Positions 5,997 to 30,051 of a DNA stretch of 38,513 bases are shown in pieces. A program made the translations under genes and the position numbers. The DNA is from a bacterium (GTDB lineage Bacteria; Nitrospinota_A; UBA7883; JACRGQ01): assembly GCA_021815535.1 (NCBI GenBank), contig JAKAGL010000001.1:1-38513 (forward strand), read 5' to 3'. The number at the start of each line of letters is the position of its first letter. The stretch's first letter is position 1. The notes beneath the pieces were generated by a model. It was given only the letters and a program-made list of their open reading frames with translations. It was not told where the DNA came from and made no database searches.

Positions 5997-6072
<76 letters not shown>

Positions 6073-11163: not shown

Positions 11164-11300
11164 TAATTCGGCTTCATCCTGTCGTTCCCGGCGGCACCTC
11201 TCTTTCATATCACCTGTTCCTGAATTTGTTTGACAGTTTCCCAATTCGGATGCACGATGAAGGAGAAGAGTAAAAGGCATCCTGCGCTATGGAGGTTAGC

Positions 11301-12062
11301 ATGAAAAAAACTCTCATTATCTTGTGCTTGGCCATTCTTTCCACAACTACCGTTTTTGCCAAAGAACCTGTTTCAGGCTACCGGTTCAAACACTACATGC
11401 ACGAGATTTTCAAAAATTACCGAAACGCCAATATCAGCATCGAAATGCGTGATTATGACCTTGCGGAGGTTCATACAAGGCACCTTCTCGAAAATCTTTC
11501 GCAGATACCCAATTTCACCAAAGATTTACGTGCCGATGGGATAAACCTTGACGAGGCTTTTCTTTTAACGACGATAAATGGTTTGCGGACTGATGTTACC
11601 GAGTTGAGAAAGGCCATAAAGGCCAAAGATGCGGGGAAGATGAAAAAACTTCAGCCGAAACTGTTGCAGTCATGTATCGGGTGTCATACAGAGGCGAACC
11701 TGAAGTGGCTCTTTCGCCTGCCAATGTCAAAAAACCTGTTTGAAGAGTATATGCATGAGATCGGGGACAACTATGCAATGGCGGAGCAGCTGTTGGCGTC
11801 CAATGACATTGACGAAGCCGAAGACTACATTAAAATCGCCAACCAGTATCTGACGCTTTTGGAAAAGATCGCTCCTTATGAGGGGCCGTCGGGAGTGATA
11901 TTGGACCGGAAGCGCTTTGTAAATGAAATAGGTAAAGCGCAGGGCTTTGCGCTGCTGGTTTTGGATGATTTCAAGGAAAAAAGGGCCATCGACCTGACGG
12001 CGCTGAAAAAGCCTCTCAACAATGTTTGTGTGGCATGTCACGAGCCGGCCATGCTTAAGTGA
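11301..12062 (+). CDS. Secreted dihaem protein, tandem cytochrome c' (class II, four-helix-bundle)-like domains
   Basis: GGAGG lies 5 nt upstream of the ATG at 11301. The signal peptide is MKKTLIILCLAILSTTTVFA. Two ~120-aa repeats (HYMHEIFKNY... / EYMHEIGDNY...) each end in a CxxCH motif (CIGCH, CVACH). Confidence 0.65.
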   Translation: MKKTLIILCLAILSTTTVFAKEPVSGYRFKHYMHEIFKNYRNANISIEMRDYDLAEVHTRHLLENLSQIPNFTKDLRADGINLDEAFLLTTINGLRTDVTELRKAIKAKDAGKMKKLQPKLLQSCIGCHTEANLKWLFRLPMSKNLFEEYMHEIGDNYAMAEQLLASNDIDEAEDYIKIANQYLTLLEKIAPYEGPSGVILDRKRFVNEIGKAQGFALLVLDDFKEKRAIDLTALKKPLNNVCVACHEPAMLK

Positions 12063-13470
12063 TAAAAAGGGGTTGATCCGTCTGTTCGTAAAAGATGACC
12101 GGAACGGTGTGCAGTTTTCCGCGTAAGAGTTCTTTCCATTCCGGGAAAGATGCGGGGAAGGTGCTGATAAGCGCGACGTCGGGTTTTGGGATCTTGGGAA
12201 GTGTTTCGGGCGTGAAAACCCTTTTATCCATAAAACGTCCTGCGGCGCGGTCGACGAAATACGGAACGGAGAAGCCTTCCCCAAGCAAAAAGCGGGCAAG
12301 CTGACCGGCATTGCGGCCGGTGCCGCAAACGGCGATATCGCGCCAGACGCCGCGTAATTTCTGTCCCAACTCTTTTGGCCCCAACTGTTGCGCGCGCCAC
12401 TGATCGTCGTAGACAATTATCTGCGGGGCGAGTTTTTTCCGTTTACGCGGTTTCCTGGGTAGTTTGATCTTGGCAATCCGATCTTCGATGATTTCCAAAA
12501 CCTTGTTTTGGGTGAAGGGGGTTAGGCCGACAGCGGCCAGTTTCGGCCTCTTGAGCATCTCTACAAGCGCTTTGCCCAAGTCGTCATGCGACGGCTCGGC
12601 CCACTTTTGGCCGGCCAGGAAGTAACAATCAAGTGCATCCGGCGCCGGTACATCCACCAGTTTGTATTTCAGAAGACGGCTGTTGGCGTCGTTTAAAAAA
12701 TCGGTTTGACCGCTCCAGCCGGTGGCGATGACCGGCAGTCCGCTGGCGGCCGCTTCGAGATAGGGGCGGCCGAACCCCTCGCCTCGCGTGGGGAGTACAT
12801 AGCAATCGGACGACTGATAAAGTTTTACCAACTGCTCCATGGTTGGAGTTCTGCCGAGAACCTTGATGTTTCCAGTGGCGTGTCCCCGTTTCTTGAGGGT
12901 GCGGATCACCGCGTTCAGCTTTTTTGCCGATTCGGGGGCGCACTGTACAACCCACTCGACATTTTTATTTTCAGGGAACTGTGTGGCGAAGGCGTGGAGC
13001 ATCACCTCCCATCCCTTGCGCAGTGAAAGGTCCATGAAGACGGAGAGAAAGCGGAACACCTTTCCGTCCGATTTTGCTTTTTTAGGCGGGGCGAAACGGC
13101 TATCAACCATATCCGGAACCACCACAAGCTTTTTCGGATCGACGCCGCCAGCGGCAAATGTTTTGATGTTGAATGCGGACGCCACCCATACCTCGTCCAT
13201 TGTATTGAGCACCTCGGCCCAAAGGCGGGGCAGGGAGTCGCTTTCAAGCATGACGCGCCCGATGTGTATCTTCCCCGGTTCCATCCGGAAAAAATGCGGA
13301 AAACCGCTGTGAATGACGATCTCTTCTTTGCAGGGGGTATATTTTTCCAGCGCATCGGGCTGGAAACTGCATCGCCAGCCACGCCGCTTAAACGCATTCA
13401 GAAATTCATTGGTGCCATAGCCGTAGCCGGAAAAACCCGGGCGGTAGCTTCTAAAGCAGATCGGCCTCAT
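12055..13470 (-). CDS. Glycosyltransferase family 1/4 with a C-terminal Rossmann-like extension
   Basis: EX7E motif (TRGEGFGRPYLEAAASGLPVIAT). The ATG at 13470 sits in an ATGA overlap with the upstream radical SAM gene. After a basic linker (KLPRKPRKRKK) comes an extra ~130-aa domain (IAVCGTGRNAGQLARFLL...). Confidence 0.8.
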   Translation of the reverse strand: MRPICFRSYRPGFSGYGYGTNEFLNAFKRRGWRCSFQPDALEKYTPCKEEIVIHSGFPHFFRMEPGKIHIGRVMLESDSLPRLWAEVLNTMDEVWVASAFNIKTFAAGGVDPKKLVVVPDMVDSRFAPPKKAKSDGKVFRFLSVFMDLSLRKGWEVMLHAFATQFPENKNVEWVVQCAPESAKKLNAVIRTLKKRGHATGNIKVLGRTPTMEQLVKLYQSSDCYVLPTRGEGFGRPYLEAAASGLPVIATGWSGQTDFLNDANSRLLKYKLVDVPAPDALDCYFLAGQKWAEPSHDDLGKALVEMLKRPKLAAVGLTPFTQNKVLEIIEDRIAKIKLPRKPRKRKKLAPQIIVYDDQWRAQQLGPKELGQKLRGVWRDIAVCGTGRNAGQLARFLLGEGFSVPYFVDRAAGRFMDKRVFTPETLPKIPKPDVALISTFPASFPEWKELLRGKLHTVPVIFYEQTDQPLFIT

Positions 13471-15239
13471 CGGCCTGTCCGTACGGGAACCGCACCGTCG
13501 CGAACCGTCCCCTTGATATCCACGGCGATCCAGCGGGCCGCTACGGTTTCGGCTATACGGAAAATATCGGCATAGTCGGCAACATCTTCGCAATTGTGGT
13601 TTATCTGAACTATGGCCAGCGGGTAGCTTTCACGCCGCATTCCATCCTGCGCTTCAGGGGCCAGCCGTTCAGGCGCCAGCGTTCCTTCATTGAAGGGCCA
13701 GAGGGGATATCCGCTAAAATCATCATCTGGATCGGGCCGCACCAGCAAGTGAACTTCAAGGCCAGCGCGCTTTTTCAATTCATTCAGCAGGGCGCGCGTT
13801 TGCCAGCGCGGGCCGCTGCAGATCAACAGCAATTTTTTTATTCCGGCAGGTATGCCGGTCAAAACGCGGGGAAAATCGGCATCCTTGAAACGGGGTCCCC
13901 CCGCGTTTGCCGCCACGCGCCGCGCACGGGCGACCTCTTCTTTTATCTGCCCGGCGGAGTAATGCCGGAAACTCTGTATCACATTGCGGCCGCCATCGTA
14001 CTGCTGCCAGTCGAAGGTGGTGATAGCTCCATCGCCGGCGCAGGAGTTGTAAAAGGGGGTGCCGGGTTGCGGCGTGCATATCGAAATTTGCATGTCGTAC
14101 AGTAGCTTTTTCTCAAGCAGGTCTTTTATCAGGGAGGTTGTGGATCGGTCCCGCTCCGGGCTGCTCCCCAACGCGCCATAAGTGAAAGTGCCATAAATAC
14201 GGATGCCGACATCCCGAGCCGCTTCCAGCGCCGCATACAGTTTTTTTATGGATTGGCTTTTGTGCATGGCACGGGCCACATCCTTATCGGCGGTCTCGAT
14301 GCCAACGCGGAGTTTGTAGTAGCCCGCCTTTTTCATCCATTCCAGCAGTTCACGGTCCAGATTCCAATAGCCGCACATGGCGTTGTATTTGAGGATATGA
14401 AGCCCCTTGGCAATGATCGCTTTGCAGAGGGCGATGACAAATTCCTTCCGGCCGTTGTGCGCTTCGTCGTCAAAAAATACCCCCTCCATCTCCGGGTACT
14501 TTTCCTTCATCGCGGCGATCTCGTCGGTGACATCGTTCACATCGCGGGGGCGCCAGCTCCCCGCACCGTTGTAATACACATTGGCCACCACGCAGAAATT
14601 GCAGGCCAGCGGGCAGCCCCGGCTGGCGAACATTTCCATCTCGCGGTATTCGTTGACCACCGGTTCCTTGTAATCGATGCGGCGTACATCATCATCTTCC
14701 GGCCACGGAAGCAGGTTGGGATCGGTGAGCGGGCGGCGCGGATTGGGGTAAAGCCCCAAAACCTTGCCCGGATGCGCACCATTGGCCAATTCAGCCACCG
14801 TCATTTCGTATTCCCCGATGCAGACATGGTCGGCGCCGGCTTTGAGTGTTTCGAGCGGAAAGGCGGAAGGGTGTTGGCCGGACATGATCACTGTACAACC
14901 CGTGGCGGTTTTAACCGCGGCTGCAAGCTTCATGTCCATGGCGAAGGCAAGGGTGCTGGTCTCCATTACCAGCCAGTCGGGTTTTTCGGCGATGATCTTT
15001 TCAAGGTACGTTTTGTGATTCCAGTTGTTGAGGTTGCCATCCAGCAGTTTTACCGCGTGGGAGGTATCGCGCTTCAGCAGCGCAGAGCAGTAGGCGAGCA
15101 TGAAAGGGTAAAAGGTCATCCATCCTTTGCTGTGGTCGTACCATGAAGGGCTTTCCACAGCGGTCCAGCGGGAAGGGAAGTGGACGTAGCGTTCACCATT
15201 TTCTCCCATGCCCACCGAGTTTGCCAATACGATCTTCAT
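13467..15239 (-). CDS. B12-binding-domain radical SAM protein (class B) with an extra C-terminal domain
   Basis: N-terminal B12-binding-like Rossmann region (KIVLAN...DWLVMETST...VIMSGQHPS). Radical SAM motif CPLACNFC (Cx3Cx2C). About 150 aa follow the radical SAM core. ATGA overlaps at both ends. Confidence 0.85.
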   Translation of the reverse strand: MKIVLANSVGMGENGERYVHFPSRWTAVESPSWYDHSKGWMTFYPFMLAYCSALLKRDTSHAVKLLDGNLNNWNHKTYLEKIIAEKPDWLVMETSTLAFAMDMKLAAAVKTATGCTVIMSGQHPSAFPLETLKAGADHVCIGEYEMTVAELANGAHPGKVLGLYPNPRRPLTDPNLLPWPEDDDVRRIDYKEPVVNEYREMEMFASRGCPLACNFCVVANVYYNGAGSWRPRDVNDVTDEIAAMKEKYPEMEGVFFDDEAHNGRKEFVIALCKAIIAKGLHILKYNAMCGYWNLDRELLEWMKKAGYYKLRVGIETADKDVARAMHKSQSIKKLYAALEAARDVGIRIYGTFTYGALGSSPERDRSTTSLIKDLLEKKLLYDMQISICTPQPGTPFYNSCAGDGAITTFDWQQYDGGRNVIQSFRHYSAGQIKEEVARARRVAANAGGPRFKDADFPRVLTGIPAGIKKLLLICSGPRWQTRALLNELKKRAGLEVHLLVRPDPDDDFSGYPLWPFNEGTLAPERLAPEAQDGMRRESYPLAIVQINHNCEDVADYADIFRIAETVAARWIAVDIKGTVRDGAVPVRTGR

Positions 15240-16267
15240 GATCCGCTTTTTTCCGCCATGAGGGAATGAGCCAGTATAGCGGCTTTTTTGTGATCTGGTT
15301 GAAGCTCAAGTGTCTTGCGCAAGGCGTCTCCCGCTTCCCTATCCAGCCCCATGCCGCGCAGAATGGAACCGATGTGGAACCATGTTGCAGCAAGGCGGGA
15401 TGAGGCGGGCGTGTTGGCGGCCGCCGCTTTGCGATACCACTCCAAAGCGGTATTTGGGTTGCCAAGTTGTTCCTCGCAATAGCCGAGGTTGTAGTAATCA
15501 TCAAATCGCGAATGCAGATCGGCGAGTTGACGGTATTTCCCGGCCGCCGCCGCGAAGTTTTTTATCAAAAGAAGCTTGCGCGCTTCGTCCTCGGCTGTGG
15601 TGGCAGTGGAATTTTTCTCGATGAATTCTGCCCTTGCGCGCTCAGTTTCGGCGCGTCCCCGGGGGTCGACGTGGTGCGTGACCACCGCATCGGGAAAAAC
15701 CTTCAGGGCGAATCCCGCGTCCTTGACGCGGTGGCAAAAATCTATATCGTCATGCTGATAGTTGCGCCGTGTTTCGTCGAACTTCACGGCATTCCAAACG
15801 TCCCATCGCATCATCATAAAGTAGCCGCTGATGTAACTGCCGGGATCTTCGGATTCGTAATCAAGCAGCTCTGGGGAAGCGAGAGGATTCCCCCGCTCGA
15901 TCTTCTGGTAGTCCCACCAGCGGTTTCCCAATGGGTCCAGGCCGCGGCATCCCGCCAAATCGAAATTGGTGTGGTGTTTCATGTTTTTCCACCAGTCGGG
16001 GGCGAAAGTAACGTCATCGTCGAGAATGATAACGGTATCGTACCTGGCGCGCGCGGCGTTGAAGTTGCGCATTTTGCACACGGCGGCGGCTTCTGCCCAT
16101 TCTTTTGTTTCGATATAGTTTACCCGCGGATCATTTTTATACTTGCCGCATACCAGTATCTCGTAAGCGGGAATATGCTGCGCTTGGATGCTCTGGATCA
16201 ACGCATCCATCATGTCGGGCCGGTGTCCGCCGGTGACGATGCAGAAGGAAATACCCGTTTTTTTCAT
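15236..16267 (-). CDS. Glycosyltransferase family 2-like protein fused to C-terminal TPR repeats
   Basis: N-terminal GT-A features (ISFCIVTGG, VIILDDDV as the DxD, HDDIDFCHR). The C-terminal TPR-like helices are YYNLGYCEEQLGNPNTALEWYRKAA...FHIGSILRGMG...ALRKTLELQPDH. Confidence 0.8.
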   Translation of the reverse strand: MKKTGISFCIVTGGHRPDMMDALIQSIQAQHIPAYEILVCGKYKNDPRVNYIETKEWAEAAAVCKMRNFNAARARYDTVIILDDDVTFAPDWWKNMKHHTNFDLAGCRGLDPLGNRWWDYQKIERGNPLASPELLDYESEDPGSYISGYFMMMRWDVWNAVKFDETRRNYQHDDIDFCHRVKDAGFALKVFPDAVVTHHVDPRGRAETERARAEFIEKNSTATTAEDEARKLLLIKNFAAAAGKYRQLADLHSRFDDYYNLGYCEEQLGNPNTALEWYRKAAAANTPASSRLAATWFHIGSILRGMGLDREAGDALRKTLELQPDHKKAAILAHSLMAEKSGS

Positions 16268-16302
16268 CGCCGCCTATTGTACCCCAGCGCTCACCCGTGG
16301 GG

Positions 16303-16524
16303 TTATAGCGGCAGAACCCGGATTGTGGCGCCCGACTTCCGGCCGAATATGCGGGCAAAATCTTCCGCATCGAACTTCGAAGTGGCTTCCAACAGCCCAA
16401 CGCCTTCCACGCCGGGTTGGGCGGCGAAAGTGAGAACCTTCACTGCGGCATGCTGTTTCCGCATACGCCCGAATATTTCAGAAATTGCCAGAGCTGTGGG
16501 GGATGTTAAGAATAAGAACCGCAT
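16303..16524 (-). CDS. Possible small (73-aa) hypothetical protein
   Basis: ORF inside an otherwise unexplained 418-bp gap in the minus-strand operon. GGGAAG lies about 6 nt upstream of the ATG. By eye its strand-helix-strand pattern resembles the start of the C-terminal domain of the B12-radical SAM protein. No recognisable family. Confidence 0.25.
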   Translation of the reverse strand: MRFLFLTSPTALAISEIFGRMRKQHAAVKVLTFAAQPGVEGVGLLEATSKFDAEDFARIFGRKSGATIRVLPL

Positions 16525-16685
16525 TGTCGCTTCCCTTTACAATTACCATTCAGGGGTTTCCAAACCTCCGGCGCCACATTGCATTCAAAGTCGTTATTAC
16601 AACGTAAATCCTTATATCCTTATCGGAAGATCTTATGGAATCTTAAAGAGGTGGTATCCCGGGTTACCAGGCGGATAAGGCTGGG

Positions 16686-18011
16686 CTATAAAAGTGCGGC
16701 CGCGGCATCGTGGCCGGCAATAAAACTGTGATCCATGTTTCCCGTTTCGTACCGCCAGCCGCCGAACCTTCCCACCGAGCTGATGTTGTGTTGGCGGAGG
16801 AATTGTTCGATGGGGCCGAGGGCCGCATCTCTCCTTAGGGAGGGAATGGGGTAGAGGTACGGTACTTTCAACATCCACGCGCTCGCGATGCGGCGGCGGT
16901 CATTCGGGCGGATAAGACCGCTTTTCACCAGCCCGTCCACCGTTTCTTTCACAATGGTGGATGCATTGCGTTTTTGCGTGATGCCTGTCGATATTTCACA
17001 CATGAACGAGGTCTGCGCGCCGGGACGCGGCACGTTGAACGGAGAGTAGTTGGAAAAATAGGTGACGCGGTAGAAGGGAACCGCTGTATCAGGAAAGTAA
17101 ACCCAGCAACGGCTGTTTTTTATGAACCGGTTGATGCCGATGCCGACCACAAGGCCGCTGTTGTGTTTTAATCCGGCAGCTGCACGAAGGATGTCCGGCT
17201 CCGGTGCATTGAGCATTTTTTTTACGAAGTGGTCCAGCGGCGCCGTGGTAATGAGCGAGCCATATGAAACCTTACTGCCATTGTGGAAAGTTATGGTCTT
17301 TCTTTTTACGTCCACTCGCACCGCTTCGTGGCGTAAGGAGATGTGCGGTGCAAAGCCGGCCGCGATTTGAATGAACAGGCCGCCGGTGCCGCCCCGGCGG
17401 GGGAAGTGGAAGGTGGCGTTAGGCCCCCATGAATGGTTAACCGCTTTCTTCTTTGCCGCATTTATTATTTCGGAAGAGGCGGGAACCGAAATGCGGTTCT
17501 CTATCCAGTAATAACCCATCTCTTCCAATGGGCTGGCCCAGAGCTTACTATTGTACGGCGTCATAAAATGCCGGGAGATGCCATCACCCAGCCGCCACGG
17601 TATCCAATCTCCGAAGTGCGCGGGTATTGCGGTATCGCCGCGTTGTTCAACGGCGATCAGCCCTTCCAGGCATTCGCGCATGGCGCGGGGCGGAAGGCTG
17701 TGGATGTTGTTTTGCAGGGGGAAGGGGATAAAACGTCCGGCGGTGCGGATGTAGCTTTCGCGGGTGTGGGTCAGCGCGTCCGCTCCCAGGGCGCGTTCCA
17801 CCACTTTGTTGAAAAGCGGGTAGCCGCTGAAGATGACGTGTCCGCCGATATCCCAAGTAAACCCCTTGGCGTCGACACGGCTGGACGAAAGGCCGCCGAT
17901 CCGCCCGGTGGATTCAAATATCATCCAGTGGGCCCGCGATTGCCGTGCCAGCCGGTATCCGGCCCCCAGTCCCGCCGGGCCGGCGCCCAGTACCGCTATA
18001 TCCAGTTTCAT
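16686..18011 (-). CDS. FAD-dependent enzyme, long-form (eukaryote-type) UDP-galactopyranose mutase-like
   Basis: Dinucleotide motif VLGAGPAGLGAG. Blocks GGHVIFS, PFPLQNNI, WGPNATFHFPRRGGTGG, CWVYFP..PFYRVTYFSNYSP and RFGGWRYETGNMDHSF match the conserved blocks I recall for fungal/kinetoplastid UGM. Confidence 0.7.
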   Translation of the reverse strand: MKLDIAVLGAGPAGLGAGYRLARQSRAHWMIFESTGRIGGLSSSRVDAKGFTWDIGGHVIFSGYPLFNKVVERALGADALTHTRESYIRTAGRFIPFPLQNNIHSLPPRAMRECLEGLIAVEQRGDTAIPAHFGDWIPWRLGDGISRHFMTPYNSKLWASPLEEMGYYWIENRISVPASSEIINAAKKKAVNHSWGPNATFHFPRRGGTGGLFIQIAAGFAPHISLRHEAVRVDVKRKTITFHNGSKVSYGSLITTAPLDHFVKKMLNAPEPDILRAAAGLKHNSGLVVGIGINRFIKNSRCWVYFPDTAVPFYRVTYFSNYSPFNVPRPGAQTSFMCEISTGITQKRNASTIVKETVDGLVKSGLIRPNDRRRIASAWMLKVPYLYPIPSLRRDAALGPIEQFLRQHNISSVGRFGGWRYETGNMDHSFIAGHDAAAALL

Positions 18012-18126
18012 TGTTGTATCTTATCGGATTGCCGGGGGTAAGCGAGAGGGGAGAGCCGCACATTTTTTTTGGGTGCGCGGTCGAGGGAGCCGTTAAATCG
18101 TGGCCGGTTATTAAAAGGGATATTTT

Positions 18127-18873
18127 TTAGGGTTTCGATTTCCAGAGGCGGTACAGCTCGGCCTGACGCTCGTAAAAATAGTACCCTTCGCCCATGGCGC
18201 GGAAAAAACCGGCCACGCCGTCCAGCATTCCCAGGCGGGTGAAGTAGGCTTTCAGGAACATGGCGAAACCGGAGAACGGGGCATAAAACAGCGGATGCCG
18301 CTCGCCCGCGCCGAACTTCTCGCGGGCCGAAAGATGGGCGTAGCGGCGGAACTTGCGGAAGAGATCGGCCGTATCGCCGACGCCAAAATGGTCTATAGGG
18401 GTTTCTATGGTGCCCATTTCGCCGGTGACGCGCGGATATTCGTGCACCACCCCCTCGAACCGTCCGCACGAGCGGCGAAACAGGCGTATCTGGTAGCTGG
18501 GATTGCACGCGCCATACCGCAGCAGCCGTTTGCCGTGGTATTCGCGCCGGCGTATGGTGAACCACGTTTTACCGGTGCCTTCCCGCATGATCCGCGCAAT
18601 CTCGGCGGCGCATTCGGGGGTAACCACCTCATCGGCGTCCAGCACGAAAACCCAGTCGTGGGTGCAGCGGTCGACGGCGTAATTACGCTGCGCCGAAAAC
18701 CCTTCCCACGCGTGGTGGTAGACCAGCGGGGTGAATTTTTTGGCCAGCGCCACCGTATCATCGGCGCTACCGCTGTCCACAACCACGATCTCGTCGGCGA
18801 ACGAAAGGCTTTTCAGGCAACGTTCGATATTGGCGGCTTCGTTGAGCGTGATGACGCAGGCGGAAAGTTTCAT
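18127..18873 (-). CDS. Glycosyltransferase family 2
   Basis: Motifs LSACVITLNEAANIERCL, EIVVVDSGSADDT and VFVLDADE (DxD). First gene of the minus-strand glycan operon. Confidence 0.85.
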   Translation of the reverse strand: MKLSACVITLNEAANIERCLKSLSFADEIVVVDSGSADDTVALAKKFTPLVYHHAWEGFSAQRNYAVDRCTHDWVFVLDADEVVTPECAAEIARIMREGTGKTWFTIRRREYHGKRLLRYGACNPSYQIRLFRRSCGRFEGVVHEYPRVTGEMGTIETPIDHFGVGDTADLFRKFRRYAHLSAREKFGAGERHPLFYAPFSGFAMFLKAYFTRLGMLDGVAGFFRAMGEGYYFYERQAELYRLWKSKP

Positions 18874-18995
18874 CGACGTACTTTATCATAATGCCGCGCG
18901 GCGGGGTAAAGGGCGCGGTTTGCGGAATTGCCGTTTATTTGTGGGGCCGAGAACCATTGTGCTAACATGCGTGCCAAGCCAAACTTGGAGAACGA

Positions 18996-19763
18996 ATGAA
19001 CGACCTTGAGAAATATATCCTTGAAAACACCGGCCACCAGACCTGCAAATGGAGCCACTATGCCGGGATTTACGACCGGCATCTGGCGAAATTCCGGGGG
19101 ACGGCGGTAACGCTGGTGGAGTTCGGCGTGTCGCACGGCGGCTCGCTGCAGATATGGAAACGTTATCTCGGTCCCAAGGCCCGCATCATCGGGGTGGACA
19201 TCAATCCCGAATGCAAAAAGCTGGAAGAAGAGCAGATCACCATCTTGATCGGCGACCAGGGGGACAAAAAGTTTCTCGAATCGATTTTGAAAACCGCTCC
19301 CGCGATCGACATCCTTATCGACGACGGCGGCCACCGGATGAAACAGCAGGTGAACACGTTTGAAGTCCTTTTTCCGCACATCACGGCCAACGGCGTGTAT
19401 TCGTGCGAGGATTTGAACACCTCGTACTGGCACCGGTATGGCGGCGGTTACAAGAAGAAGGGTTCGTTCATCGAGTACAGCAAGAATTTCATCGACTATC
19501 TGAACGCCTGGCATTCCGAGCAGCCGCGCCGCCTGAATGTTTCGGCATTCACCAAAACGGTCGATTCGCTGCATTACTATGACGGCCTGCTGGTCATAGA
19601 AAAACGGCCGCGGGAGATGCCCTACGCCGTCGAAACCGGTCAGCCGACCACCAACTTCTATCTGAAAAAAACGCTGGGGGAACGGCTGGAACGGCTGTGG
19701 CTGCGCCCAATCGGCTACAAAGAGGCGCCCACCAGCCTTGCGCCCAACAGAAAAGTCAAATGA
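18996..19763 (+). CDS. Class I SAM-dependent methyltransferase (CmcI/sugar O-methyltransferase-like)
   Basis: Motifs LVEFGVSHGGSLQIWKRYLGPKARIIGVDINP and ILIDDGGH, typical of the CmcI-like family. Transcribed divergently from the GT2 gene. Confidence 0.8.
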   Translation: MNDLEKYILENTGHQTCKWSHYAGIYDRHLAKFRGTAVTLVEFGVSHGGSLQIWKRYLGPKARIIGVDINPECKKLEEEQITILIGDQGDKKFLESILKTAPAIDILIDDGGHRMKQQVNTFEVLFPHITANGVYSCEDLNTSYWHRYGGGYKKKGSFIEYSKNFIDYLNAWHSEQPRRLNVSAFTKTVDSLHYYDGLLVIEKRPREMPYAVETGQPTTNFYLKKTLGERLERLWLRPIGYKEAPTSLAPNRKVK

Positions 19764-19834
19764 CCCTCATCCCTTCCTTACATTGTGGGGCGCGGCGGCA
19801 TGCGGCGTTTCCGGCATGCCGGGGGCGGTAGCGC

Positions 19835-20599
19835 GTGTGCAACGTTAGCGGGATCGCGTTCGGGAACAAAAGCCTGACGCCGGCCGATGTCTTCGGCAAG
19901 GACGTCATCGAAGTGGGGGCGTGCGACGTCAACGGCAGCCTGCGCGCCGGGGTGGAGGCCAAAAAGCCGGCTTCATACTTGGGGGTGGACATCGTGCCGG
20001 GCAAGGGGGTCGACGTGGTGTGCGGCGCCGATGAGCTGGTTGAAAAATTCGGCCCGCAGCGTTTCGACATCGTGATATCGACCGAGATGATAGAGCATGT
20101 GCTCGATTGGCGGCGGGCCGTTTCCAACCTAAAAAATATCTGCCGTCCCGGCGGCGTGTTAATCGTCACCACCCGCTCGAAGGGGTTCCACTTCCACGCC
20201 GCGCCGTACGATTTTTGGCGCTATGAGATCGATGATATGAAGGCGATTTTTTCCGATTTTGAAATCGAGATGCTGGAGAAGGATACGGCCGACATCGGCG
20301 TATTCATGAAAGCGCACAAACCGGCGTCGTTCAAAGAAAACAGCCTTGCCGGGTACGCCCTATACAACATCGTCACCGACGACCGCCGCGAATCGTTCGA
20401 TATGGATGACATGGGCAACCCCCGGTGGAAGAAAAACCCCGTATACGACAAGGGGATTTACAAACACCTGAAGGATCTGATCCGCACGAAGGCCATCACC
20501 GATTACGGCGATGTGGCCGGTTCCCGGTGGTATCCGCGCCGACCCTACTACCGCCTCAAGCTGGCGTTCAGCTTTTTACGCACGAAGTTTCTGGGCTGA
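19835..20599 (+). CDS. Class I SAM-dependent methyltransferase (Methyltransf_11-like)
   Basis: Motif I VIEVGACDVNG, then YLGVDI, FDIVISTEMIEHV and RPGGVLIVTT. The GTG start comes immediately after an in-frame stop. Confidence 0.8.
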   Translation: MCNVSGIAFGNKSLTPADVFGKDVIEVGACDVNGSLRAGVEAKKPASYLGVDIVPGKGVDVVCGADELVEKFGPQRFDIVISTEMIEHVLDWRRAVSNLKNICRPGGVLIVTTRSKGFHFHAAPYDFWRYEIDDMKAIFSDFEIEMLEKDTADIGVFMKAHKPASFKENSLAGYALYNIVTDDRRESFDMDDMGNPRWKKNPVYDKGIYKHLKDLIRTKAITDYGDVAGSRWYPRRPYYRLKLAFSFLRTKFLG

Positions 20600-20636
20600 G
20601 GGTTTCCCGCAGCCGGCGCTTCCGGCGTTTTCCGGC

Positions 20637-21422
20637 CTACAGGTTGCAGGTTTTGCAGATATCAAATGGCCAGATGCCGCTGCTTATCAGGCGGCGGGCT
20701 TTGACGTAGGCCGGGGCGTACCAGATGTCGCGCAACTCTTTTTCACCGGCATTGCCGAATGTGACCGAGGATGTGAAATCGTTGCAACACAGGACGGCGT
20801 TCCCCCGGTAGTCGATGGTGAGGTGGTTTACCAGGAAACAGTAGGGGTGGCGTGTGTGCTTGATGTCCACCAGCCCCCCCCGATTGTTGAGCATATCCCC
20901 CTCTTTGCGGTAGTACATGCTGTGGAAATCGACGATTTCGACTTTATACAATTCCGGCCTTTCCGCCTTGATGTATGCCAAGGTATCGGCCAGGAGCTTT
21001 GGCATGGATGGGGAATGAAGCGATATGCGGAACGAATCGACCCCCGCCTCCATCAATGCGAGGTATTTTTCCGCCGATAGGAAATCGCCGTTGGTGTAGA
21101 CAATGATGTTGGCCTTTGGCAGTTTTTTCCGTGCGTAGGCCATGAACGCAGGCAGCCGTTCATCGGCCAGCGGCTCGCCGTAGAAATGCGGCGAGAAGCG
21201 GCCCTCAAATCCCCATCGGGAGAGGGAATCGATGATCCTGTAAAACAGTTGTTCATCCATCGGCACTTCGGGGCGCCCCACCGTGTAATTGGGGCAGTAG
21301 ACGCATTTGCGGTTGCAGTACGAGGTGGTTTCCACCTCCACCGTTTTGGGCGGGCGTACCGGCCCCAGCAGCGCTTTTGCGTACCGCAGCCACGCGGCAA
21401 GCATCGAATGTTTCAGCGACAT
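20637..21422 (-). CDS. Radical SAM protein with a SPASM/twitch-type C-terminal Cys domain
   Basis: Radical SAM motif CNRKCVYC (Cx3Cx2C). The C-terminal C-x11-G-x4-C (CFLVNHLTIDYRGNAVLC) is followed by C and a terminal CKTC. 261 aa. Confidence 0.85.
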   Translation of the reverse strand: MSLKHSMLAAWLRYAKALLGPVRPPKTVEVETTSYCNRKCVYCPNYTVGRPEVPMDEQLFYRIIDSLSRWGFEGRFSPHFYGEPLADERLPAFMAYARKKLPKANIIVYTNGDFLSAEKYLALMEAGVDSFRISLHSPSMPKLLADTLAYIKAERPELYKVEIVDFHSMYYRKEGDMLNNRGGLVDIKHTRHPYCFLVNHLTIDYRGNAVLCCNDFTSSVTFGNAGEKELRDIWYAPAYVKARRLISSGIWPFDICKTCNL

Positions 21423-21431
21423 GGCCGTTAC

Positions 21432-22310
21432 CTACCTTCCACCTTCGCGGCCAGGCCCCACAACCTCGGCGGGCGAGGCGGGGGATGGGGCGTCGCCGCT
21501 GCATATGCGGCAGATCTCATACGGCCACAGTCCGCTCCAGTAGCGGCGGCGGATGTCGAGGTAGTCCTTTTTATTCCAGATATCGATGAGGCGCTCGGTG
21601 GATGCGTTGCCGAACCGATGTTGGGAATAGTAATCCATGCAACAGAGGATCACGTTCCCTTCCACATCGATGGTGAGCCGTTTGAAGTTGCAGTAATTGA
21701 GCTTGCCGGGGTGTTTCACGTAGACCGCGCCCCCCCGGTTGGAAAGCTCCTGTTCCTCGTCACGCTCGAAGATCACGATGTTTTTGGCGTATTGCGAGCC
21801 TTTCACCGCCTCGACCATCCGGGTGAACGGTTCGGCGGGGATGCGGTCATGCCGGGATACCTTGATACAGTCGGCGCCGCTTTCCACCAGCCGCTTGAAT
21901 TTTTCAAAATCCAGAAGGTCGCCGTTGGTATACACCTCCAGCGTGGCGCCGGGAAGCTGCGTCCGCGCCTGCTTCAAAAAGCCGAACAGCCGCTTATCCA
22001 AAAGCGGCTCGCTGTAAAAACAGAAAAATAGCGTCCCGGTGAATCTGATGTCGCCAAGATCGCCGATGATCTTTTTATAAAGCGCCTCGTCCATCATTTT
22101 TGCCGGTCTTGGATTGACGGAAACCGGACAGTAAACGCAGTTCCGGTTGCACGCCGAGATGGTTTCGATTTCCACCATCTTGAACAGGGGGTTGCGGAAC
22201 ATCCCCAGCCAATAGCCCACCTTCCGCAACGGCCTGAAAGAGTAAAGAAAAGTCTTTAGCTCGTTCTTTGACAAGATTTTCATATAGTTATCCGCAAGGT
22301 TCCGTTGCAA
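21432..22310 (-). CDS. Radical SAM protein with a SPASM/twitch-type C-terminal Cys domain (paralog of the 20637-21422 gene)
   Basis: Radical SAM motif CNRNCVYC. The C-terminal Cys pattern is CNFKRLTIDVEGNVILCC ... CRICSG. It is colinear with the downstream paralog throughout. Start is TTG at 22310 or, perhaps more likely, ATG at 22283. Confidence 0.85.
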   Translation of the reverse strand: MQRNLADNYMKILSKNELKTFLYSFRPLRKVGYWLGMFRNPLFKMVEIETISACNRNCVYCPVSVNPRPAKMMDEALYKKIIGDLGDIRFTGTLFFCFYSEPLLDKRLFGFLKQARTQLPGATLEVYTNGDLLDFEKFKRLVESGADCIKVSRHDRIPAEPFTRMVEAVKGSQYAKNIVIFERDEEQELSNRGGAVYVKHPGKLNYCNFKRLTIDVEGNVILCCMDYYSQHRFGNASTERLIDIWNKKDYLDIRRRYWSGLWPYEICRICSGDAPSPASPAEVVGPGREGGR

Positions 22311-22459
22311 GCCGGTGTTGGGTTCGGCTTCAAACCTTTAAGCCGGATGTATCAGATTGCGGGGCAAAGAGTTTCTTCATCGTTCTTATTATAACCTTCA
22401 GAAGGAGAGTTTCTAGCAGAAAGCTCCTTTTTCCGGTTATTGGCGGAACGAGAGGGGGC

Positions 22460-23524
22460 CTAGGCGGGCCGGTCGCGCAGGCCCTGATGGATCTCCGCCA
22501 TGATCTCGCGGATGCTGCGGGTGTACTCCCATTTCGGATAATGCGCGCGGAACTTCCGTACGTCGCTTATCCACCAGATGTGGTCGCCGCTGCGGTTTTC
22601 ATCCACATAGTTGAGCTTCATCCTGTTGCCGCTGATCTCTTCCGCGATGGCGACCGCCTCGAGCAACGAGCAGTTCGAATGCCGTCCGCCCCCCGCGTTG
22701 TACACCTCGCCGGGGCGCGGGTTTTGGTGGTAATGCCAAAACATGTTAACCAGGTCGTGGCTGTAGATGTTGTCGCGCACCTGCTTTCCCTTGTAGCCGA
22801 AGATGTTGTATCGGCGGCCGGTAACGCAGCATTTGATGAGGTAGGCCAAGAAGCCGTGCAGTTCCGCGCCCGAATGGCCGGGACCGGTCAGGCATCCGCC
22901 GCGGAAACAGGCGGTGTTCATGCCGAAGTAGCGGCCGTACTCCTGCACCATCACGTCGGCGGCAACCTTGGAAACGCCGAACACGCTGTGTTTTGAGCTG
23001 TCGATGCTCATGCTTTCGTCGATGCCGTGGGCGGCGAACGGGTGCGCCGGGTCCACTTCCCAGCGGGTCTCGCGCTCCACCAGCGGCAGCGCATTCGGCG
23101 TATCGCCATATACCTTGTTGGTGGAGGTGAAGATGAAGGATGTCTTTGGGGCATGGCGGCGCGCCGCTTCCAGCATGATGAGCGTGCCAGTCGCGTTGAT
23201 GGAAAAATCGGTAAGCGGTTCGCGCGCGGCCCAGTCGTGCGAGGGCTGGGCGGCGGCGTGAATGACGATGGCGATGTCGGCGCCGTATTCGGCAAATACC
23301 CTCTCCACCGCCTGTTGGTCGCGGATGTCGGCCTCCACATGAATGTAGTTCGGCACCTGCTCCCTCAGCCGTTGCAGGTTCCAGCGGGTGGATCCGTCCT
23401 CGCCAAAGAAGTATTTCCGCATGTCGTTATCGATGCCGACGGGGGTGAATCCCTGCCGGGCGAAGAACCGGACCGCTTCCGAGCCGATGAGACCGGCGGA
23501 ACCGGTGATGAGCGCGACAGCCAT
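22460..23524 (-). CDS. Extended SDR, NAD-dependent sugar epimerase/dehydratase family (CDP-paratose/tyvelose 2-epimerase-like)
   Basis: Motifs [12 protein letters not shown] (GxxGxxG) and STNKVYGD, plus FGVSK at the YxxxK position. I prefer the ATG at 23524 over the TTG at 23542. Confidence 0.85.
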
Positions 23525-23621: not shown

Positions 23622-24542
23622 ATGACCGCTATGGTATCCGGGAACAGCCGCACGATTGGGATCGATCTGGGGGGAACCGGCATTTCGTTCATCGATATGT
23701 ATTCGCCGGACAACGTTATTCAGCGTATGCACATCGAAACCCCTTCCACGCGGGGTGAAATCGTGTCGGCGCTGAAAACGGCGGCGCTTCGTTTTTTGGA
23801 AACGCCGGGCCATCCCGCGCCGTCCGGCATCGGCGTTGCTGTTGCGGGGCAGGTGGGGCATGCGGGCAAAAGCGTTGTGTTCAGCCCCAACTTGCCGTTC
23901 AAAACGGAATACGCACTGGGCATGGAGCTGGAAAAGGAATTCGGCATTCCGGTATCTTTGGAAAACGACGCCAACGCCGCCGCTTTTGGGGAGCGGGTGT
24001 TCGGCATGGCGAAGGGGATGGATGATTTTATTGTCATCACGCTTGGCACCGGCATCGGGGCCGGCATTTTCGCGAACGGAAAGTTGGTGTGCGGCCACAC
24101 CGGCTCCGGCGGCGAGGCGGGGCACATGGTGATTCTTCCCGAGGGGCCGCTCTGCGGTTGCGGCAACAAAGGATGCCTGGAGGCGTTGGCATCCGGCACG
24201 GCGATCGCCCGTTCGTTCAGGGAGAAAACCGGCATCGAAAAGAGCGCCAAAGAGGTGTGCGGCCTCGCGCGCGATGGCGATGCCGCGGCCCGCGCGGTGC
24301 TGCGGGCCGCGGGCGATTATCTGGGATACGGCCTCGTAAATCTTGTCAACCTTTTTGGGCCGCAAGCGGTCTTCTTTACCGGCTCGCTTTCCAACGCGCC
24401 AGACGATTATTTTGTTCCCGCCCTGCGGCGGGTGCGGGAACGATCGTTCGGCACGGCGGGAAAGGACGTCGTTCTGAAGGTATCACCGTTAGCCTCGGAA
24501 GTGGGCGTTATCGGCGCCGCCGCCCTCCCGTTGCTCCGGTGA
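23622..24542 (+). CDS. ROK-family sugar kinase (glucokinase-like)
   Basis: Motifs IGIDLGGT, ENDANAAAFGE, ITLGTGIGAG and the zinc motif GHMVILPEGPLCGCGNKGCLE. Confidence 0.85.
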   Translation: MTAMVSGNSRTIGIDLGGTGISFIDMYSPDNVIQRMHIETPSTRGEIVSALKTAALRFLETPGHPAPSGIGVAVAGQVGHAGKSVVFSPNLPFKTEYALGMELEKEFGIPVSLENDANAAAFGERVFGMAKGMDDFIVITLGTGIGAGIFANGKLVCGHTGSGGEAGHMVILPEGPLCGCGNKGCLEALASGTAIARSFREKTGIEKSAKEVCGLARDGDAAARAVLRAAGDYLGYGLVNLVNLFGPQAVFFTGSLSNAPDDYFVPALRRVRERSFGTAGKDVVLKVSPLASEVGVIGAAALPLLR

Positions 24543-24631: not shown

Positions 24632-25447
24632 ATGATAGAGATTCGCAAACCGGTATTCCCAAAAGAGCACGGCCTGTGGGCATGGGTCTTTCTGCCGCTC
24701 CTTGTCGGCGCCGGCTGTGCCAAGGGGGATCATACCGTCATGGTCCCCTTGGTGTTATCGATCTTTCTGGGCTTCATGGCGTACACTCCCGCCCGCATCA
24801 TATACAAGGGATGGCGCAAGGGGGTTGCGCAAGACGGCAATATTGTTTTCTGGTTTATGGCTTATGCGGTGGCGGCGCTGGCGTTCACTTTTATTATCGT
24901 TGCCGGCGATCCCTGGACGCTTTTATTTTATGGCGGTCTGGCTTTGGCTTTCGCAATGGCCTTGGGGGCGGCGGCGGAAGGGGTTGGGCGCAGCGCCGCG
25001 TTTGAATTCGGCGGTCTTATATTCCTTTCGGTTGCGCTTTCGTTCCTCGGCGCGTTCGCCGTGTCGGGCGCATTTGACCGGGCGCATATCGCGCCGTGGG
25101 CGTTGACGCTTCTTTTTATGTTGGAGCGTTCGGTCGCCGCGCGCCGCACTGTCCGGCTGGGCGGGTTTCTGCCGGCCCTGGCCCAGCAGTCGCCAAAGCA
25201 CGCGCTCACGCTCAAGACGGTCTTCATGCAAAACCTTGGGTTGGCGTTCTTATCGCCGTTTGTGGCGCTGGTATTGGCGAAAAATCTGGGGGCGTCGTTA
25301 TTGCCGGCCGTGGCATTCATCCCCGGCTTTTTCACCACTCTTTATTTTTACCTGAAGCCTCCCGCCACCCTCCGTCCGCTCGGTTTTGCCGAGCTTTACC
25401 TCTCGATCTTTTTTGCGGCTCTGTTTATTCTTCTTTACCAGCTATAA
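24632..25447 (+). CDS. YwiC-like integral membrane protein
   Basis: 271 aa with about 8 hydrophobic segments. The N-terminal PKEHGLWAWVFLPLLVG is characteristic of the YwiC-like family. Confidence 0.65.
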   Translation: MIEIRKPVFPKEHGLWAWVFLPLLVGAGCAKGDHTVMVPLVLSIFLGFMAYTPARIIYKGWRKGVAQDGNIVFWFMAYAVAALAFTFIIVAGDPWTLLFYGGLALAFAMALGAAAEGVGRSAAFEFGGLIFLSVALSFLGAFAVSGAFDRAHIAPWALTLLFMLERSVAARRTVRLGGFLPALAQQSPKHALTLKTVFMQNLGLAFLSPFVALVLAKNLGASLLPAVAFIPGFFTTLYFYLKPPATLRPLGFAELYLSIFFAALFILLYQL

Positions 25448-25681
25448 AACAAGCAGTTAAGCCGAAGCATTTTTTGTACTTCCAAAAGAGTATTTTTTCT
25501 GTAATTGGTGTAGAATGGAACATAACCAGAGAGTGAGGCGCATTAAGTTTGGAGGGGTAGCCAAGCTATCGTGGGCATTTATTAATGCTTCATAGTCTAT
25601 GGAGGGCGATTCGTTAGCGTTTCGTTACAATGATCAAAAAACCAATAATCGCTATTATTCTAAGCTTTGGAGGGAAATGAC

Positions 25682-29257: not shown

Positions 29258-29302
29258 GCATGTTTGTTGCCGCCGTCAGATGAAAATTTCTATAATGCCA
29301 GC

Positions 29303-29958: not shown

Positions 29959-30051
29959 GATCCGATCCTCGAGAATGACCATGAAGATTGCCTGCCGTTG
30001 CCAATTTTTCAGTAGGTTGAAAACGTAAATAAAAATTCTCTGTTTCTTTCG

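Follow-up and report, generated by a model that had tools for sequence, protein, structure and literature searches.

Two separable modules with radical SAM enzymes in a putative glycoconjugate locus of a Nitrospinota bacterium

Three radical S-adenosylmethionine (SAM) enzymes are encoded among glycosyltransferases, methyltransferases and sugar-nucleotide enzymes at positions 12055–23524 of contig JAKAGL010000001.1 (GenBank assembly GCA_021815535.1), within a stretch of 38,513 nucleotides from a bacterium of the Nitrospinota_A lineage; this whole stretch is referred to here as the window. What radical chemistry would do at such a locus, and on which acceptor, is the question addressed here. A first-pass annotation of the sequence had treated the three radical SAM enzymes as one unit, modifying a sugar or glycoconjugate that could be borne by a neighbouring Thr-rich lipoprotein. 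Comparison with related loci does not bear out the single unit: the locus is a composite of a conserved core operon, which holds a radical SAM enzyme with a B12-binding domain, and a strain-variable cassette made up of a pair of BtrN-like radical SAM enzymes, a small glycosyltransferase and the methyltransferases. On balance, we favour a cytoplasmic glycoconjugate-building locus of a Nitrospinales-type bacterium, made of these two separable modules, with radical SAM tailoring of sugars in both.

Architecture and conservation of the locus

Eleven genes lie at 12055–23524, ten for enzymes and one for a 73-residue open reading frame (orf73). Thirteen had been counted before; the intergenic gaps of 10–162 bp leave no space for further genes, and the remaining long open reading frames are antisense shadows of the called genes. 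The three-operon convergent and divergent arrangement described earlier is correct. Unit 1, on the minus strand, runs from a small soluble GT2 glycosyltransferase (18873–18127) through a UDP-galactopyranose mutase (UGM) homologue, orf73, a GT-A glycosyltransferase with C-terminal TPR repeats (GT2-TPR) and the B12-binding-domain radical SAM enzyme to a GT4/GT1-type glycosyltransferase (here GT4; 13470–12055). Unit 2, on the plus strand, consists of two methyltransferases (18996–20599), and unit 3, again on the minus strand, of a short-chain dehydrogenase/reductase (SDR; 23524–22460), BtrN-like enzyme B (22310–21432) and BtrN-like enzyme A (21422–20637). Pfam and NCBIfam searches found every enzyme class listed by the first-pass annotation where it had been placed, and the two ATGA overlaps it described, GT2-TPR with the B12-binding-domain enzyme and the latter with GT4, are both real, at 4 bp each. 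Promoter-like sites are more numerous than in shuffled sequence (16 versus 9.7 ± 2.6), none being decisive for operon structure, and the count of terminator-like sites is at the shuffled level.

For the comparison, contigs encoding relatives were taken together with 80 genome loci (L-numbers below) and the window proteins were mapped onto them by tblastn; all of the fetched loci are centred on anchor genes. The named relatives of the B12-binding-domain enzyme are from Nitrospinota. In all 14 orthologous loci of sufficient length (49–89% identity), GT2-TPR, this enzyme and GT4 are adjacent, GT4 adjoining the radical SAM gene in every orthologous locus; UGM lies upstream of this core except in L010 and the truncated L011. 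What lies between the SDR and UGM genes, here called the slot, differs from strain to strain. In the window it holds BtrN-like B, BtrN-like A, the small GT2 and, on the opposite strand, a MycE-type methyltransferase and a second methyltransferase (MT11). L009 (89% identical) has the same set minus MT11; L013 has a Glyco_trans_1_2 gene and a different GT2; L094–L096 (85% identical) have a Glyco_trans_1_2 gene, a different GT2 and a methyltransferase; L093 has neither slot nor SDR; and in L001, L002, L012, L091 and L092 the slot is empty, with a ROK gene directly beside UGM. The BtrN cassette is thus missing from relatives that are 80–85% identical. The same tandem BtrN-like pair as in the window and L009 recurs in L006, where BtrN-like B, BtrN-like A and, directly downstream, the small GT2 (78, 85 and 73% identical, respectively) form a stand-alone operon at an unrelated genomic site.

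Conservation of the radical SAM genes with the glycosyltransferase and methyltransferase genes, which the earlier proposal had relied on, therefore holds in part. It stands for the B12-binding-domain enzyme with GT2-TPR and GT4 and for the BtrN-like pair with the small GT2; it fails for the BtrN-like pair with the core and for the methyltransferases because the cassette is strain-variable and the core separate. Strain-variable surface glycans show the same pattern, a constant core combined with an exchangeable tailoring slot. Around the cassette no flanking repeats were found, nor is there a GC shift at it.

The radical SAM enzymes and their relatives elsewhere

The core radical SAM enzyme (13467–15239, minus strand; 590 residues) matches Pfam B12-binding (E 3e-11; 43.5 bits, cut-off 32.1) and Radical_SAM (E 3e-15; 57.4 bits). 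An N-terminal B12-binding Rossmann domain followed by a CX3CX2C barrel gives it the class B architecture, cobalamin use being predicted only, and an additional Rossmann-like domain of ∼130 residues (∼460–585) lies at the C-terminus. The three cysteines of the motif (C209, C213 and C216) are invariant in 52 relatives. Its AlphaFold2 model (predicted local distance difference test score, pLDDT, of 90) has AprD4 as the best Foldseek match (E 3e-21, TM-score 0.80, r.m.s.d. of 3.6 Å over 474 columns), ranked ahead of the cobalamin enzymes MgmA, TsrM, CysS, OxsB and TokK, and AprD4 is also its best sequence match in the PDB. AprD4, a radical SAM 1,2-diol dehydratase whose substrate is the pseudodisaccharide paromamine, accomplishes with its reductase partner AprD3 the C3'-deoxygenation of apramycin biosynthesis; it is not known to use cobalamin. 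The best NCBIfam family is HpnJ (TIGR03471; 143.9 bits over residues 43–437), with BchE next at 71 bits. The HpnI/HpnK/HpnJ system converts bacteriohopanetetrol glucosamine to the cyclitol ether. The proposal for HpnJ is that, as a B12-class enzyme without methylating activity, it brings about contraction of the hopanoid glycoside's glucosamine ring (PMC9204698, PMC13459092). Orthology to HpnJ was ruled out by a score at a quarter of the cut-off and by the ∼28% identity of real hpnJ products, and neither the 38.5-kb window nor the flanking regions of the 14 orthologous loci contain hopanoid genes (shc, hpnH, hpnI or hpnK). The window contains neither a cobalamin riboswitch nor a B12 gene, its sole Rfam match being a tRNA at 6000–6072.

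Both cassette enzymes, BtrN-like A (20637–21422, minus strand; 261 residues) and BtrN-like B (21432–22310, minus strand; 292 residues), carry the Pfam Radical_SAM and SPASM domains and match BtrN in the PDB (4m7t for A). The phmmer alignments to BtrN are near full length, with E 4e-37 over residues 27–260 of A and E 3e-31 over residues 37–272 of B, and the two paralogues are 43% identical to each other. The radical SAM motif is CNRKCVYC in A (C36, C40 and C43) and CNRNCVYC in B. Cys195, Cys212, Cys256 and Cys259 of A align with the cysteines of the BtrN auxiliary cluster, so that a single Cys4 cluster is predicted; the three radical SAM cysteines, the four auxiliary cysteines and the Arg of an NRGG motif are invariant across 28 diverse BtrN-like relatives. 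BtrN itself (PDB entries 4M7S and 4M7T) is the 2-deoxy-scyllo-inosamine dehydrogenase of butirosin biosynthesis. Its abridged SPASM domain, known as a twitch domain, houses an auxiliary [4Fe-4S] cluster ligated by four cysteines (PMC10337720). According to the Pfam and NCBIfam searches, there is no 2-deoxy-scyllo-inosose synthase or aminotransferase in the window or the related loci, the neighbours being glycosyltransferases. Since there are no butirosin or 2-deoxystreptamine genes, and since these enzymes are coupled or fused to glycosyltransferases, the substrate would differ from that of BtrN and be another sugar or glycoside. As judged from sequence, the pair resembles BtrN mechanistically without being orthologous to it, and either a ketone or an epimer could be the product. 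The closest characterized relatives of all three radical SAM enzymes (BtrN, AprD4 and HpnJ) act on sugars or cyclitols.

Relatives of both kinds of enzyme occur in glycan loci of many other organisms. Short-form relatives of the B12-binding-domain enzyme (45–51% identical) are found in metagenome-assembled genomes labelled Omnitrophota, Patescibacteria, Planctomycetales and Actinomycetota, one protein match is labelled Altiarchaeota, and the clade is also spread over Nitrospinota and Planctomycetota. The 85 proteins encoded within two genes of the short-form enzymes include 16 GT2, ten GT1, seven radical SAM, six class I methyltransferase, four SDR, four Wzy and three Wzx proteins. L004 is a glycan locus with two radical SAM genes, and L005 (2705–7996) is a Wzx locus with three radical SAM and two GT2 genes, one of the radical SAM proteins being a fusion of ∼800 residues that joins a window-type B12-binding enzyme to a second radical SAM/SPASM domain (P0057, P0072). 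Plasmid 1 of Lawsonia intracellularis (L089; NC_008012.1 7259–26449; 27 kb), from a cultured pathogen, is largely a glycan locus, with three GT2 genes, galE, heptose-type SIS/HAD/GHMP genes, two radical SAM genes and five class I methyltransferase genes; one of its radical SAM proteins is 28% identical to the window enzyme, and the plasmid may offer a convenient system for studying how radical SAM enzymes tailor glycans. A locus of Eleftheria terrae combines a PIG-L deacetylase, glycosyltransferases, a related radical SAM gene and a cobalamin protein. Glycan loci with several radical SAM genes are not confined to this window, two or three being present in L004, L005 and the Lawsonia plasmid.

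The BtrN-like family comprises 249 clusters at the 50% identity level (E ≤ 1e-30). Its members include a GT2–BtrN-like fusion (P0311), a BtrN-like–GT1 fusion (P0360) and a BtrN-like–SGNH fusion (P0273). Other fused BtrN-like proteins were considered as glycosyltransferase fusions and set aside, their N-terminal domain of ∼300 residues having one faint GT9 match (E 0.003). The 116 immediate neighbours of 68 metagenomic BtrN-like genes include 12 GT1, eight radical SAM (five with a B12 domain), five SDR, about eight methyltransferase and two DegT proteins, and a window-type B12-binding enzyme lies within 6 kb in seven of 80 BtrN-like loci. Full-length homology to BtrN, the AprD4 fold, the HpnJ profile, the glycosyltransferase fusions and the glycan neighbourhoods together make radical chemistry on sugars, as originally proposed, the best reading of the three enzymes.

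Three further observations were made on these families. Many of the metagenomic BtrN-like genes are directly followed on the same strand by an open reading frame of ∼107 residues, too frequently for chance (for example L139 6729–7055, L142 6739–7062, L146–L148, L151, L156 and L158), which is not prominent among the Pfam families recovered. L007 (4808–9929, a Nitrospinota metagenome-assembled genome) has one BtrN-like gene (62% identical), three GT2 genes, a Glyco_trans_1_2 gene, a GT87 gene of the GT-C type and a gene for a hydrophobic protein of 526 residues without a Pfam family; this set is a hint that the module may, in some strains, supply a periplasmic step dependent on a lipid carrier. 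In marine Nitrospinaceae (L003 7469–11749 and ∼55 loci in all, e.g. L016 and L024–L045) two B12-binding radical SAM paralogues of ∼590 residues bracket a Pfam-less protein of ∼200 residues, between ftsY and an FG-GAP protein gene and with no glycosyltransferases nearby. These long enzymes are ∼40% identical to the window enzyme, C-terminal domain included, and were set aside as paralogues because of their different conserved context.

No characterized counterpart of the locus was found in the literature searched, which agrees with its earlier description as uncharacterized, and no paper was found on such radical SAM enzymes in the synthesis of polysaccharide, O-antigen, capsule, galactofuranose or glycoprotein. 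It is chiefly in antibiotic pathways that radical SAM enzymes have so far been established to tailor sugars (BtrN, AprD4 and the GenK-type methylases), and radical SAM chemistry has been proposed for hopanoid and calditol lipids. Judging by the present locus and the larger families to which its enzymes belong, uncultivated bacteria and archaea make wide use of this chemistry on their cellular glycans. Being small, soluble and self-contained, the four-gene core and the BtrN/GT2 module of three genes offer a practical start for finding new sugar modifications; keto, deoxy, carbocyclic and C-methyl sugars are the products to seek.

Proposed pathway and acceptor

The partner enzymes of the core are two glycosyltransferases and a flavoenzyme. 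GT4 (12055–13470, minus strand; 471 residues) matches Pfam Glyco_trans_1_4 and Glycos_transf_1 (E ∼1e-15) and has a C-terminal extension of ∼150 residues; it is the final gene of the core operon, its start lying within the ATGA overlap with the radical SAM gene. Its PDB relatives are all distant (MshA, PimB and GlgA), and it has a weak match to NCBIfam TIGR04157, 'glyco_rSAM_CFB'. The C-terminal extensions of GT4 and of the B12-binding-domain enzyme have no mutual similarity that would mark a shared docking domain. GT2-TPR (15236–16267, minus strand; 343 residues) matches Pfam TPR and, weakly, GT2 families. Its AlphaFold2 model (pLDDT 92) has a GT-A fold at residues 1–220 and TPR repeats at 225–341, and the DDD and QHDDxDFCHR motifs are kept in its homologues. 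The protein is lineage-restricted, with 22 homologues among 5.8 billion proteins, the named ones from Nitrospinae/Nitrospinota. The top Foldseek matches are WrtF, SunS and GlfT2, each at E ∼1e-9, so that by fold GT2-TPR is a generic GT-A enzyme; a search for a specific acceptor class was unproductive, SunS and GlfT2 matching no better than TarP and WrtF. The UGM homologue (16686–18011, minus strand; 441 residues) belongs to the long, eukaryote-type form. It matches Pfam Amino_oxidase and NAD_binding_8, aligns with the Aspergillus fumigatus and Trypanosoma cruzi UGM structures over its full length (residues 2–437, E 3e-94), and its translation carries a GAGPAGLGAG dinucleotide-binding motif for FAD and a DIGGH loop.

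Between these genes lies orf73 (16303–16524, minus strand; 73 residues), which has no Pfam or NCBIfam family match and had been thought doubtful as a gene. The frame is intact in at least five related genomes at 62–81% amino-acid identity, with an in-frame indel in one relative and an excess of third-codon-position changes relative to the closest one; on this sequence evidence it is probably a real gene. It is intact in L009, L013, L093 and L094–L096, i.e. in the 80–89% identity group only, and absent from the orthologous operons of 49–71% identity, which keep the enzymes.

In the slot, the small GT2 (18127–18873, minus strand; 248 residues; Pfam Glycos_transf_2, E 1e-22) has as its sole significant PDB sequence matches GmaR (E 1.9e-18), SunS (E 2e-11) and the ThuS-like entry 7msk (E 1e-8); its NCBIfam SunS score is 48 bits against a cut-off of 350. 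A MycE/TylE-like sugar O-methyltransferase (18996–19763, plus strand; 255 residues; Pfam Methyltransf_24) matches PDB entries 3ssm (MycE; E 9e-24) and 8ia9 (TylE; E 1e-18) and is found among the related loci only in L009. MT11 (19835–20599, plus strand; 254 residues) is a class I SAM methyltransferase (Pfam Methyltransf_23 and Methyltransf_11) that is strain-specific, with no homologue in the related loci. At the slot edge is the SDR (22460–23524, minus strand; 354 residues; Pfam Epimerase, E 3e-40), which is closest to CDP-tyvelose 2-epimerase (PDB entry 1orr, E 2e-34, versus E 1e-18 for GalE). It is the most conserved gene, with 92–95% identity to L009, L013 and L094–L096 compared with 76–89% for the other locus proteins, reflecting either unusually strong constraint or recent exchange. 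A ROK-family sugar kinase gene (23622–24542, plus strand; Pfam ROK, E 8e-64) is divergent from the core and adjoins it in L001, L002, L012, L013, L091, L092 and L094–L096. Next to it is a gene for a YwiC-like protein with seven transmembrane-like segments (24632–25447, plus strand; Pfam YwiC, E 1e-12, and a transmembrane scan), found near the core also in L013, L092 (16359–17165), L094 (1–738) and L095 at identities down to 60%. It is the sole membrane protein consistently near the locus and a possible associate.

The transmembrane scan gave no segment in any of the ten enzymes or in orf73. No family of Wzx, Wzy, ABC exporter or priming transferase was found in the locus by Pfam or NCBIfam, in accord with the first-pass annotation; the priming phosphoglycosyl transferase, flippase, polymerase and exporter by which Wzx/Wzy- or ABC-dependent O-antigen and exopolysaccharide loci are recognized are thus all lacking here. 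From the homologies, the modular conservation, the glycosyltransferase–radical SAM fusions and this soluble character we infer the reactions, a cytoplasmic site for all of the steps and an acceptor. The ROK kinase and the CDP-tyvelose 2-epimerase-like SDR would feed nucleotide-sugar pools and UGM would make UDP-galactofuranose. GT2-TPR and GT4 would transfer two sugars, from one of which the AprD4/HpnJ-like enzyme would abstract a hydrogen; the outcome may be diol dehydration (giving a deoxy sugar after reduction), ring contraction or C-methylation. Where the cassette is present, the GmaR/SunS-like small GT2 would add a further sugar, the BtrN-like enzymes would oxidize CH–OH to C=O, or else invert the configuration, at one or two positions, and the MycE-type and second methyltransferases would then cap hydroxyls by methylation. 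Radical SAM enzymes need SAM, Fe–S clusters and a low-potential reductant, and so the tailoring must be cytoplasmic, which fits the absence of membrane steps.

A candidate acceptor is encoded nearby. The product of the gene at 25667–29038 (plus strand) is a Thr-rich lipoprotein with a lipobox (LVAC) followed by a G/S/T tract of ∼65 residues. Its homologues in L010 and L013 retain the lipobox and the S/T/G tract; the one in L010 follows GT4 immediately and on the same strand, and the one in L013 is two genes from the SDR. The stand-alone BtrN/GT2 operon of L006 is divergent from another lipoprotein gene, whose product has 80% Ser plus Thr over 60 residues after the lipobox; homology between this protein and that of the window was sought and is absent outside the low-complexity tract. 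Thr-rich lipoproteins thus adjoin the modules in three differing arrangements. Among 1034 open reading frames of at least 150 residues in 1.43 Mb of fetched loci, three, the window lipoprotein included, reach at least 40% Thr in a 40-residue window. The solved relatives of the small GT2 also point to a protein acceptor, since all act on proteins or peptides: GmaR is the flagellin O-GlcNAc transferase of Listeria, and SunS and ThuS are glycocin glycosyltransferases. The window lipoprotein has a Sec-type signal peptide, and cytoplasmic glycosylation would thus have to come before Sec export; this order is known for AIDA-I/Aah, HMW1/HMW1C and the serine-rich adhesins, none of which is known to involve a lipoprotein.

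The earlier suggestion of the lipoprotein as target thus gains real support from its adjacency and from the relatives of the small GT2, while remaining inconclusive. Our tentative preference is for a Ser/Thr-rich lipoprotein linker, such as that encoded at 25667–29038, glycosylated before Sec export, although somewhat less than an even chance is given to it. More speculative, and on present evidence rather unlikely in full, is a wholly cytoplasmic radical-SAM-assisted protein O-glycosylation in Nitrospinota, in which the GmaR/SunS-like GT2 would glycosylate the Thr-rich linkers of lipoprotein precursors, the BtrN-like pair would oxidize or epimerize this sugar while it is on the protein and the core would add a galactofuranose-containing unit with one sugar deoxygenated, contracted in its ring or C-methylated by radical chemistry. 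If true, radical SAM chemistry would be seen for the first time on a glycan attached to a protein, a new kind of bacterial protein glycosylation would be revealed, and two large radical SAM clades, frequently found next to glycosyltransferases or fused with them, would acquire a function.

Several points weigh against the pathway or against this acceptor. Six core loci (L001, L002, L012, L091, L092 and L093) have no Thr-rich protein within 10 kb, so that the core needs no adjacent target. The adjacency statistics are weak because all of the loci are centred on anchor genes, and the count of Thr-rich proteins is one for the fetched loci, not a background frequency for the lineage. The signal peptide of the window lipoprotein being of the Sec and not the Tat type, export of a heavily glycosylated chain needs assumptions that stretch precedent. 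The matches of the small GT2 to GmaR and SunS span only its ∼95 N-terminal residues, and the fold matches of GT2-TPR are generic (TM-score ∼0.45, and 0.37 for SunS). AprD4 is not known to use cobalamin, which makes the B12 dependence of the window enzyme uncertain; the HpnJ score of 143.9 bits is far below the cut-off of 577.6, and annotated hpnJ products are 26–28% identical over 61–65% of the enzyme. Neither radical SAM clade has a known activity or glycan structure in a glycan context, and the genes in the fetched loci were called by a crude longest-open-reading-frame method.

Rival readings and comparison with known systems

Of the other readings, the one that survives best, though we hold it to be unlikely, is that the locus makes a glycolipid head group, GT2-TPR and GT4 glycosylating a membrane lipid on which the HpnJ-like enzyme produces a carbocyclic or rearranged group; calditol synthase of Sulfolobus is a proposed parallel for such head-group rearrangement, beside HpnI/HpnK/HpnJ. 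All of the enzymes being soluble and Wzx/Wzy absent would suit this pathway, as would the lead of HpnJ in NCBIfam (144 bits, compared with at most 71 for the other class B families), the lipid and small-molecule glycosyltransferases PimB and MshA among the relatives of GT4, and the pairing of a related radical SAM enzyme with a PIG-L deacetylase and glycosyltransferases in E. terrae. The overlap of a GT2 gene with the radical SAM gene also recalls the adjacency of hpnI and hpnJ (pathway in PMC13459092 and PMC9204698). However, there are no lipid, hopanoid or isoprenoid genes in the window or its relatives, the HpnJ score is a quarter of its cut-off (with 28% identity to a true HpnJ across 61% of the length) and AprD4, the best structural neighbour, is not a lipid enzyme. 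UGM and a variable glycosyltransferase/methyltransferase slot are more typical of surface glycans, and the TPR domain suggests a protein partner.

Slightly less probable again is a soluble small-molecule glycoside, i.e. a cytoplasmic pseudo-oligosaccharide natural product or compatible solute. Five genes have their closest characterized relatives in secondary-metabolite or deoxysugar pathways (BtrN twice, AprD4, MycE/TylE and CDP-tyvelose 2-epimerase), the enzymes are soluble with no export or polymerization machinery, and a ROK sugar kinase is adjacent. Against this, Pfam and NCBIfam show no 2-deoxy-scyllo-inosose synthase, aminotransferase, resistance gene, regulator or exporter. The core is syntenic with the housekeeping genes pyrF and tatC across Nitrospinota (49–89% identity), unlike accessory natural-product clusters, and the same radical SAM clades elsewhere sit with Wzx, Wzy and many glycosyltransferases.

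We regard as improbable that no single pathway is encoded, either because the genes are juxtaposed by chance or because this is an ordinary lipid-linked O-antigen or exopolysaccharide locus with its membrane genes elsewhere. Cassette and core are indeed separable, related radical SAM genes occur in classical Wzx/Wzy loci, and in a contig from a metagenome-assembled genome distant partners are out of view. Yet the core is translationally coupled through its ATGA overlaps and strictly co-conserved over 14 loci, the BtrN-like pair recurs with the same GT2, and glycosyltransferase–radical SAM domain fusions exist. The variant with membrane genes elsewhere is compatible with most of the evidence, and differs from the preferred cytoplasmic locus in the carrier alone.

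A modified or glycosylated peptide of the RiPP class (made by ribosomes and modified after translation), with orf73 as a precursor that is C-methylated by the B12-binding-domain enzyme, cross-linked or epimerized by the SPASM enzymes and glycosylated by a SunS-like GT2, is very improbable: orf73 is conserved and lies directly upstream of GT2-TPR and the B12-binding-domain enzyme, there are weak NCBIfam matches to the radical SAM families ApyD (4e-18) and TIGR03975 (3e-6), the small GT2 matches SunS and a ThuS-like protein and the architecture of GT2-TPR is SunS-like, but orf73 is absent from the 49–71% orthologous operons that keep all four enzymes, has no Cys and no recognizable leader/core organization, no protease or exporter is present, matches to RiPP radical SAM families fall well short of the cut-offs, the SPASM proteins are of the BtrN twitch type with a single auxiliary cluster and not peptide maturases, and a RiPP pathway has no use for UGM, the 2-epimerase, the ROK kinase or the sugar O-methyltransferase. 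The reading was rejected, orf73 being confined to the closest relatives and bearing no resemblance to a glycocin or core peptide. A defence system was likewise rejected, PADLOC giving only weak radical-SAM-core similarity to pVip (E 3e-6 to 6e-4) and a Pfam 'GT4-conflict' match leading nowhere.

Some other features of the window were noted. A gene at 11289–12062 encodes a lipoprotein-like protein of 257 residues with two CXXCH haem motifs and faint similarity to cytochrome c'; the gene is convergent with GT4, running towards its end, and keeps this place in all close relatives. At 6184–8291, beside tonB, are genes for a formylmethanofuran:tetrahydromethanopterin (H4MPT) formyltransferase-like protein and an Fwd-A-like amidohydrolase; these H4MPT-type C1 genes were identified through synteny with annotated genes of relatives (PF01913 FTR and PF07969). 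A REP-associated tyrosine transposase (RAYT) gene at 29264–29806 (NCBIfam REP_Tyr_transpos, 80.5 bits against a cut-off of 80) is flanked by arrays of 30–40-nucleotide palindromic repeats at 29094–29258 and 29813–29985, and 29094–29985 is a classic RAYT/REPIN arrangement.

Set against characterized systems, the cassette enzymes are nearest to BtrN, with near-full-length alignment (261 and 292 versus ∼250 residues) and the same CX3CX2C motif, auxiliary cysteines and NRGG Arg; they differ in being tandem paralogues coupled to a GT2 enzyme, the domain elsewhere being fused to GT2 or GT1. The core enzyme shares with AprD4 an N-terminal B12-like Rossmann domain and a radical SAM barrel, and the substrate of AprD4 is a glycoside. 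The identity is however 18%, the window enzyme scores 42 bits for NCBIfam AprD4 (cut-off 500) and has the extra C-terminal domain of ∼130 residues and no defined AprD3-type partner, and its context is one of glycosyltransferases and not an aminoglycoside pathway. As in the HpnI/HpnK/HpnJ system, a GT2 gene lies directly upstream of the radical SAM gene; unlike it, the window has no hopanoid genes and no HpnK-type deacetylase. The flavoenzyme is homologous to eukaryote-type UGM over its full length (E 3e-94) and differs from prokaryotic UGM in lacking the GLF domain (Pfam PF03275). GlfT2 ranks among the top fold matches of GT2-TPR with a TM-score of 0.45; as this is a generic GT-A match, GT2-TPR is not assigned as a galactofuranosyltransferase.

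GT2-TPR has the same GT-A-plus-TPR layout as SunS, which was second in the fold search. Soluble enzymes, no lipid-carrier genes and Thr-rich lipoproteins nearby make GmaR, SunS/ThuS and, by analogy, Aah/TibC, HMW1C and the GtfA/B of serine-rich adhesins the closest systems for protein glycosylation, although all of these are without radical SAM enzymes, UGM and O-methyltransferases, the matches cover the nucleotide-binding half of the GT-A domain only and the window has no accessory Sec system. The radical SAM glycan loci that are themselves uncharacterized (Lawsonia, Eleftheria, the Omnitrophota, Patescibacteria and Planctomycetota metagenome-assembled genomes, and TIGR04157) differ in sequence (26–51% identity), often have Wzx/Wzy or heptose genes and do not have the UGM–GT2-TPR–radical SAM–GT4 operon. 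With the window they share GT2/GT4 glycosyltransferases, SDR enzymes, several class I methyltransferases and a B12-type radical SAM enzyme, and like the window they often carry a second radical SAM gene.

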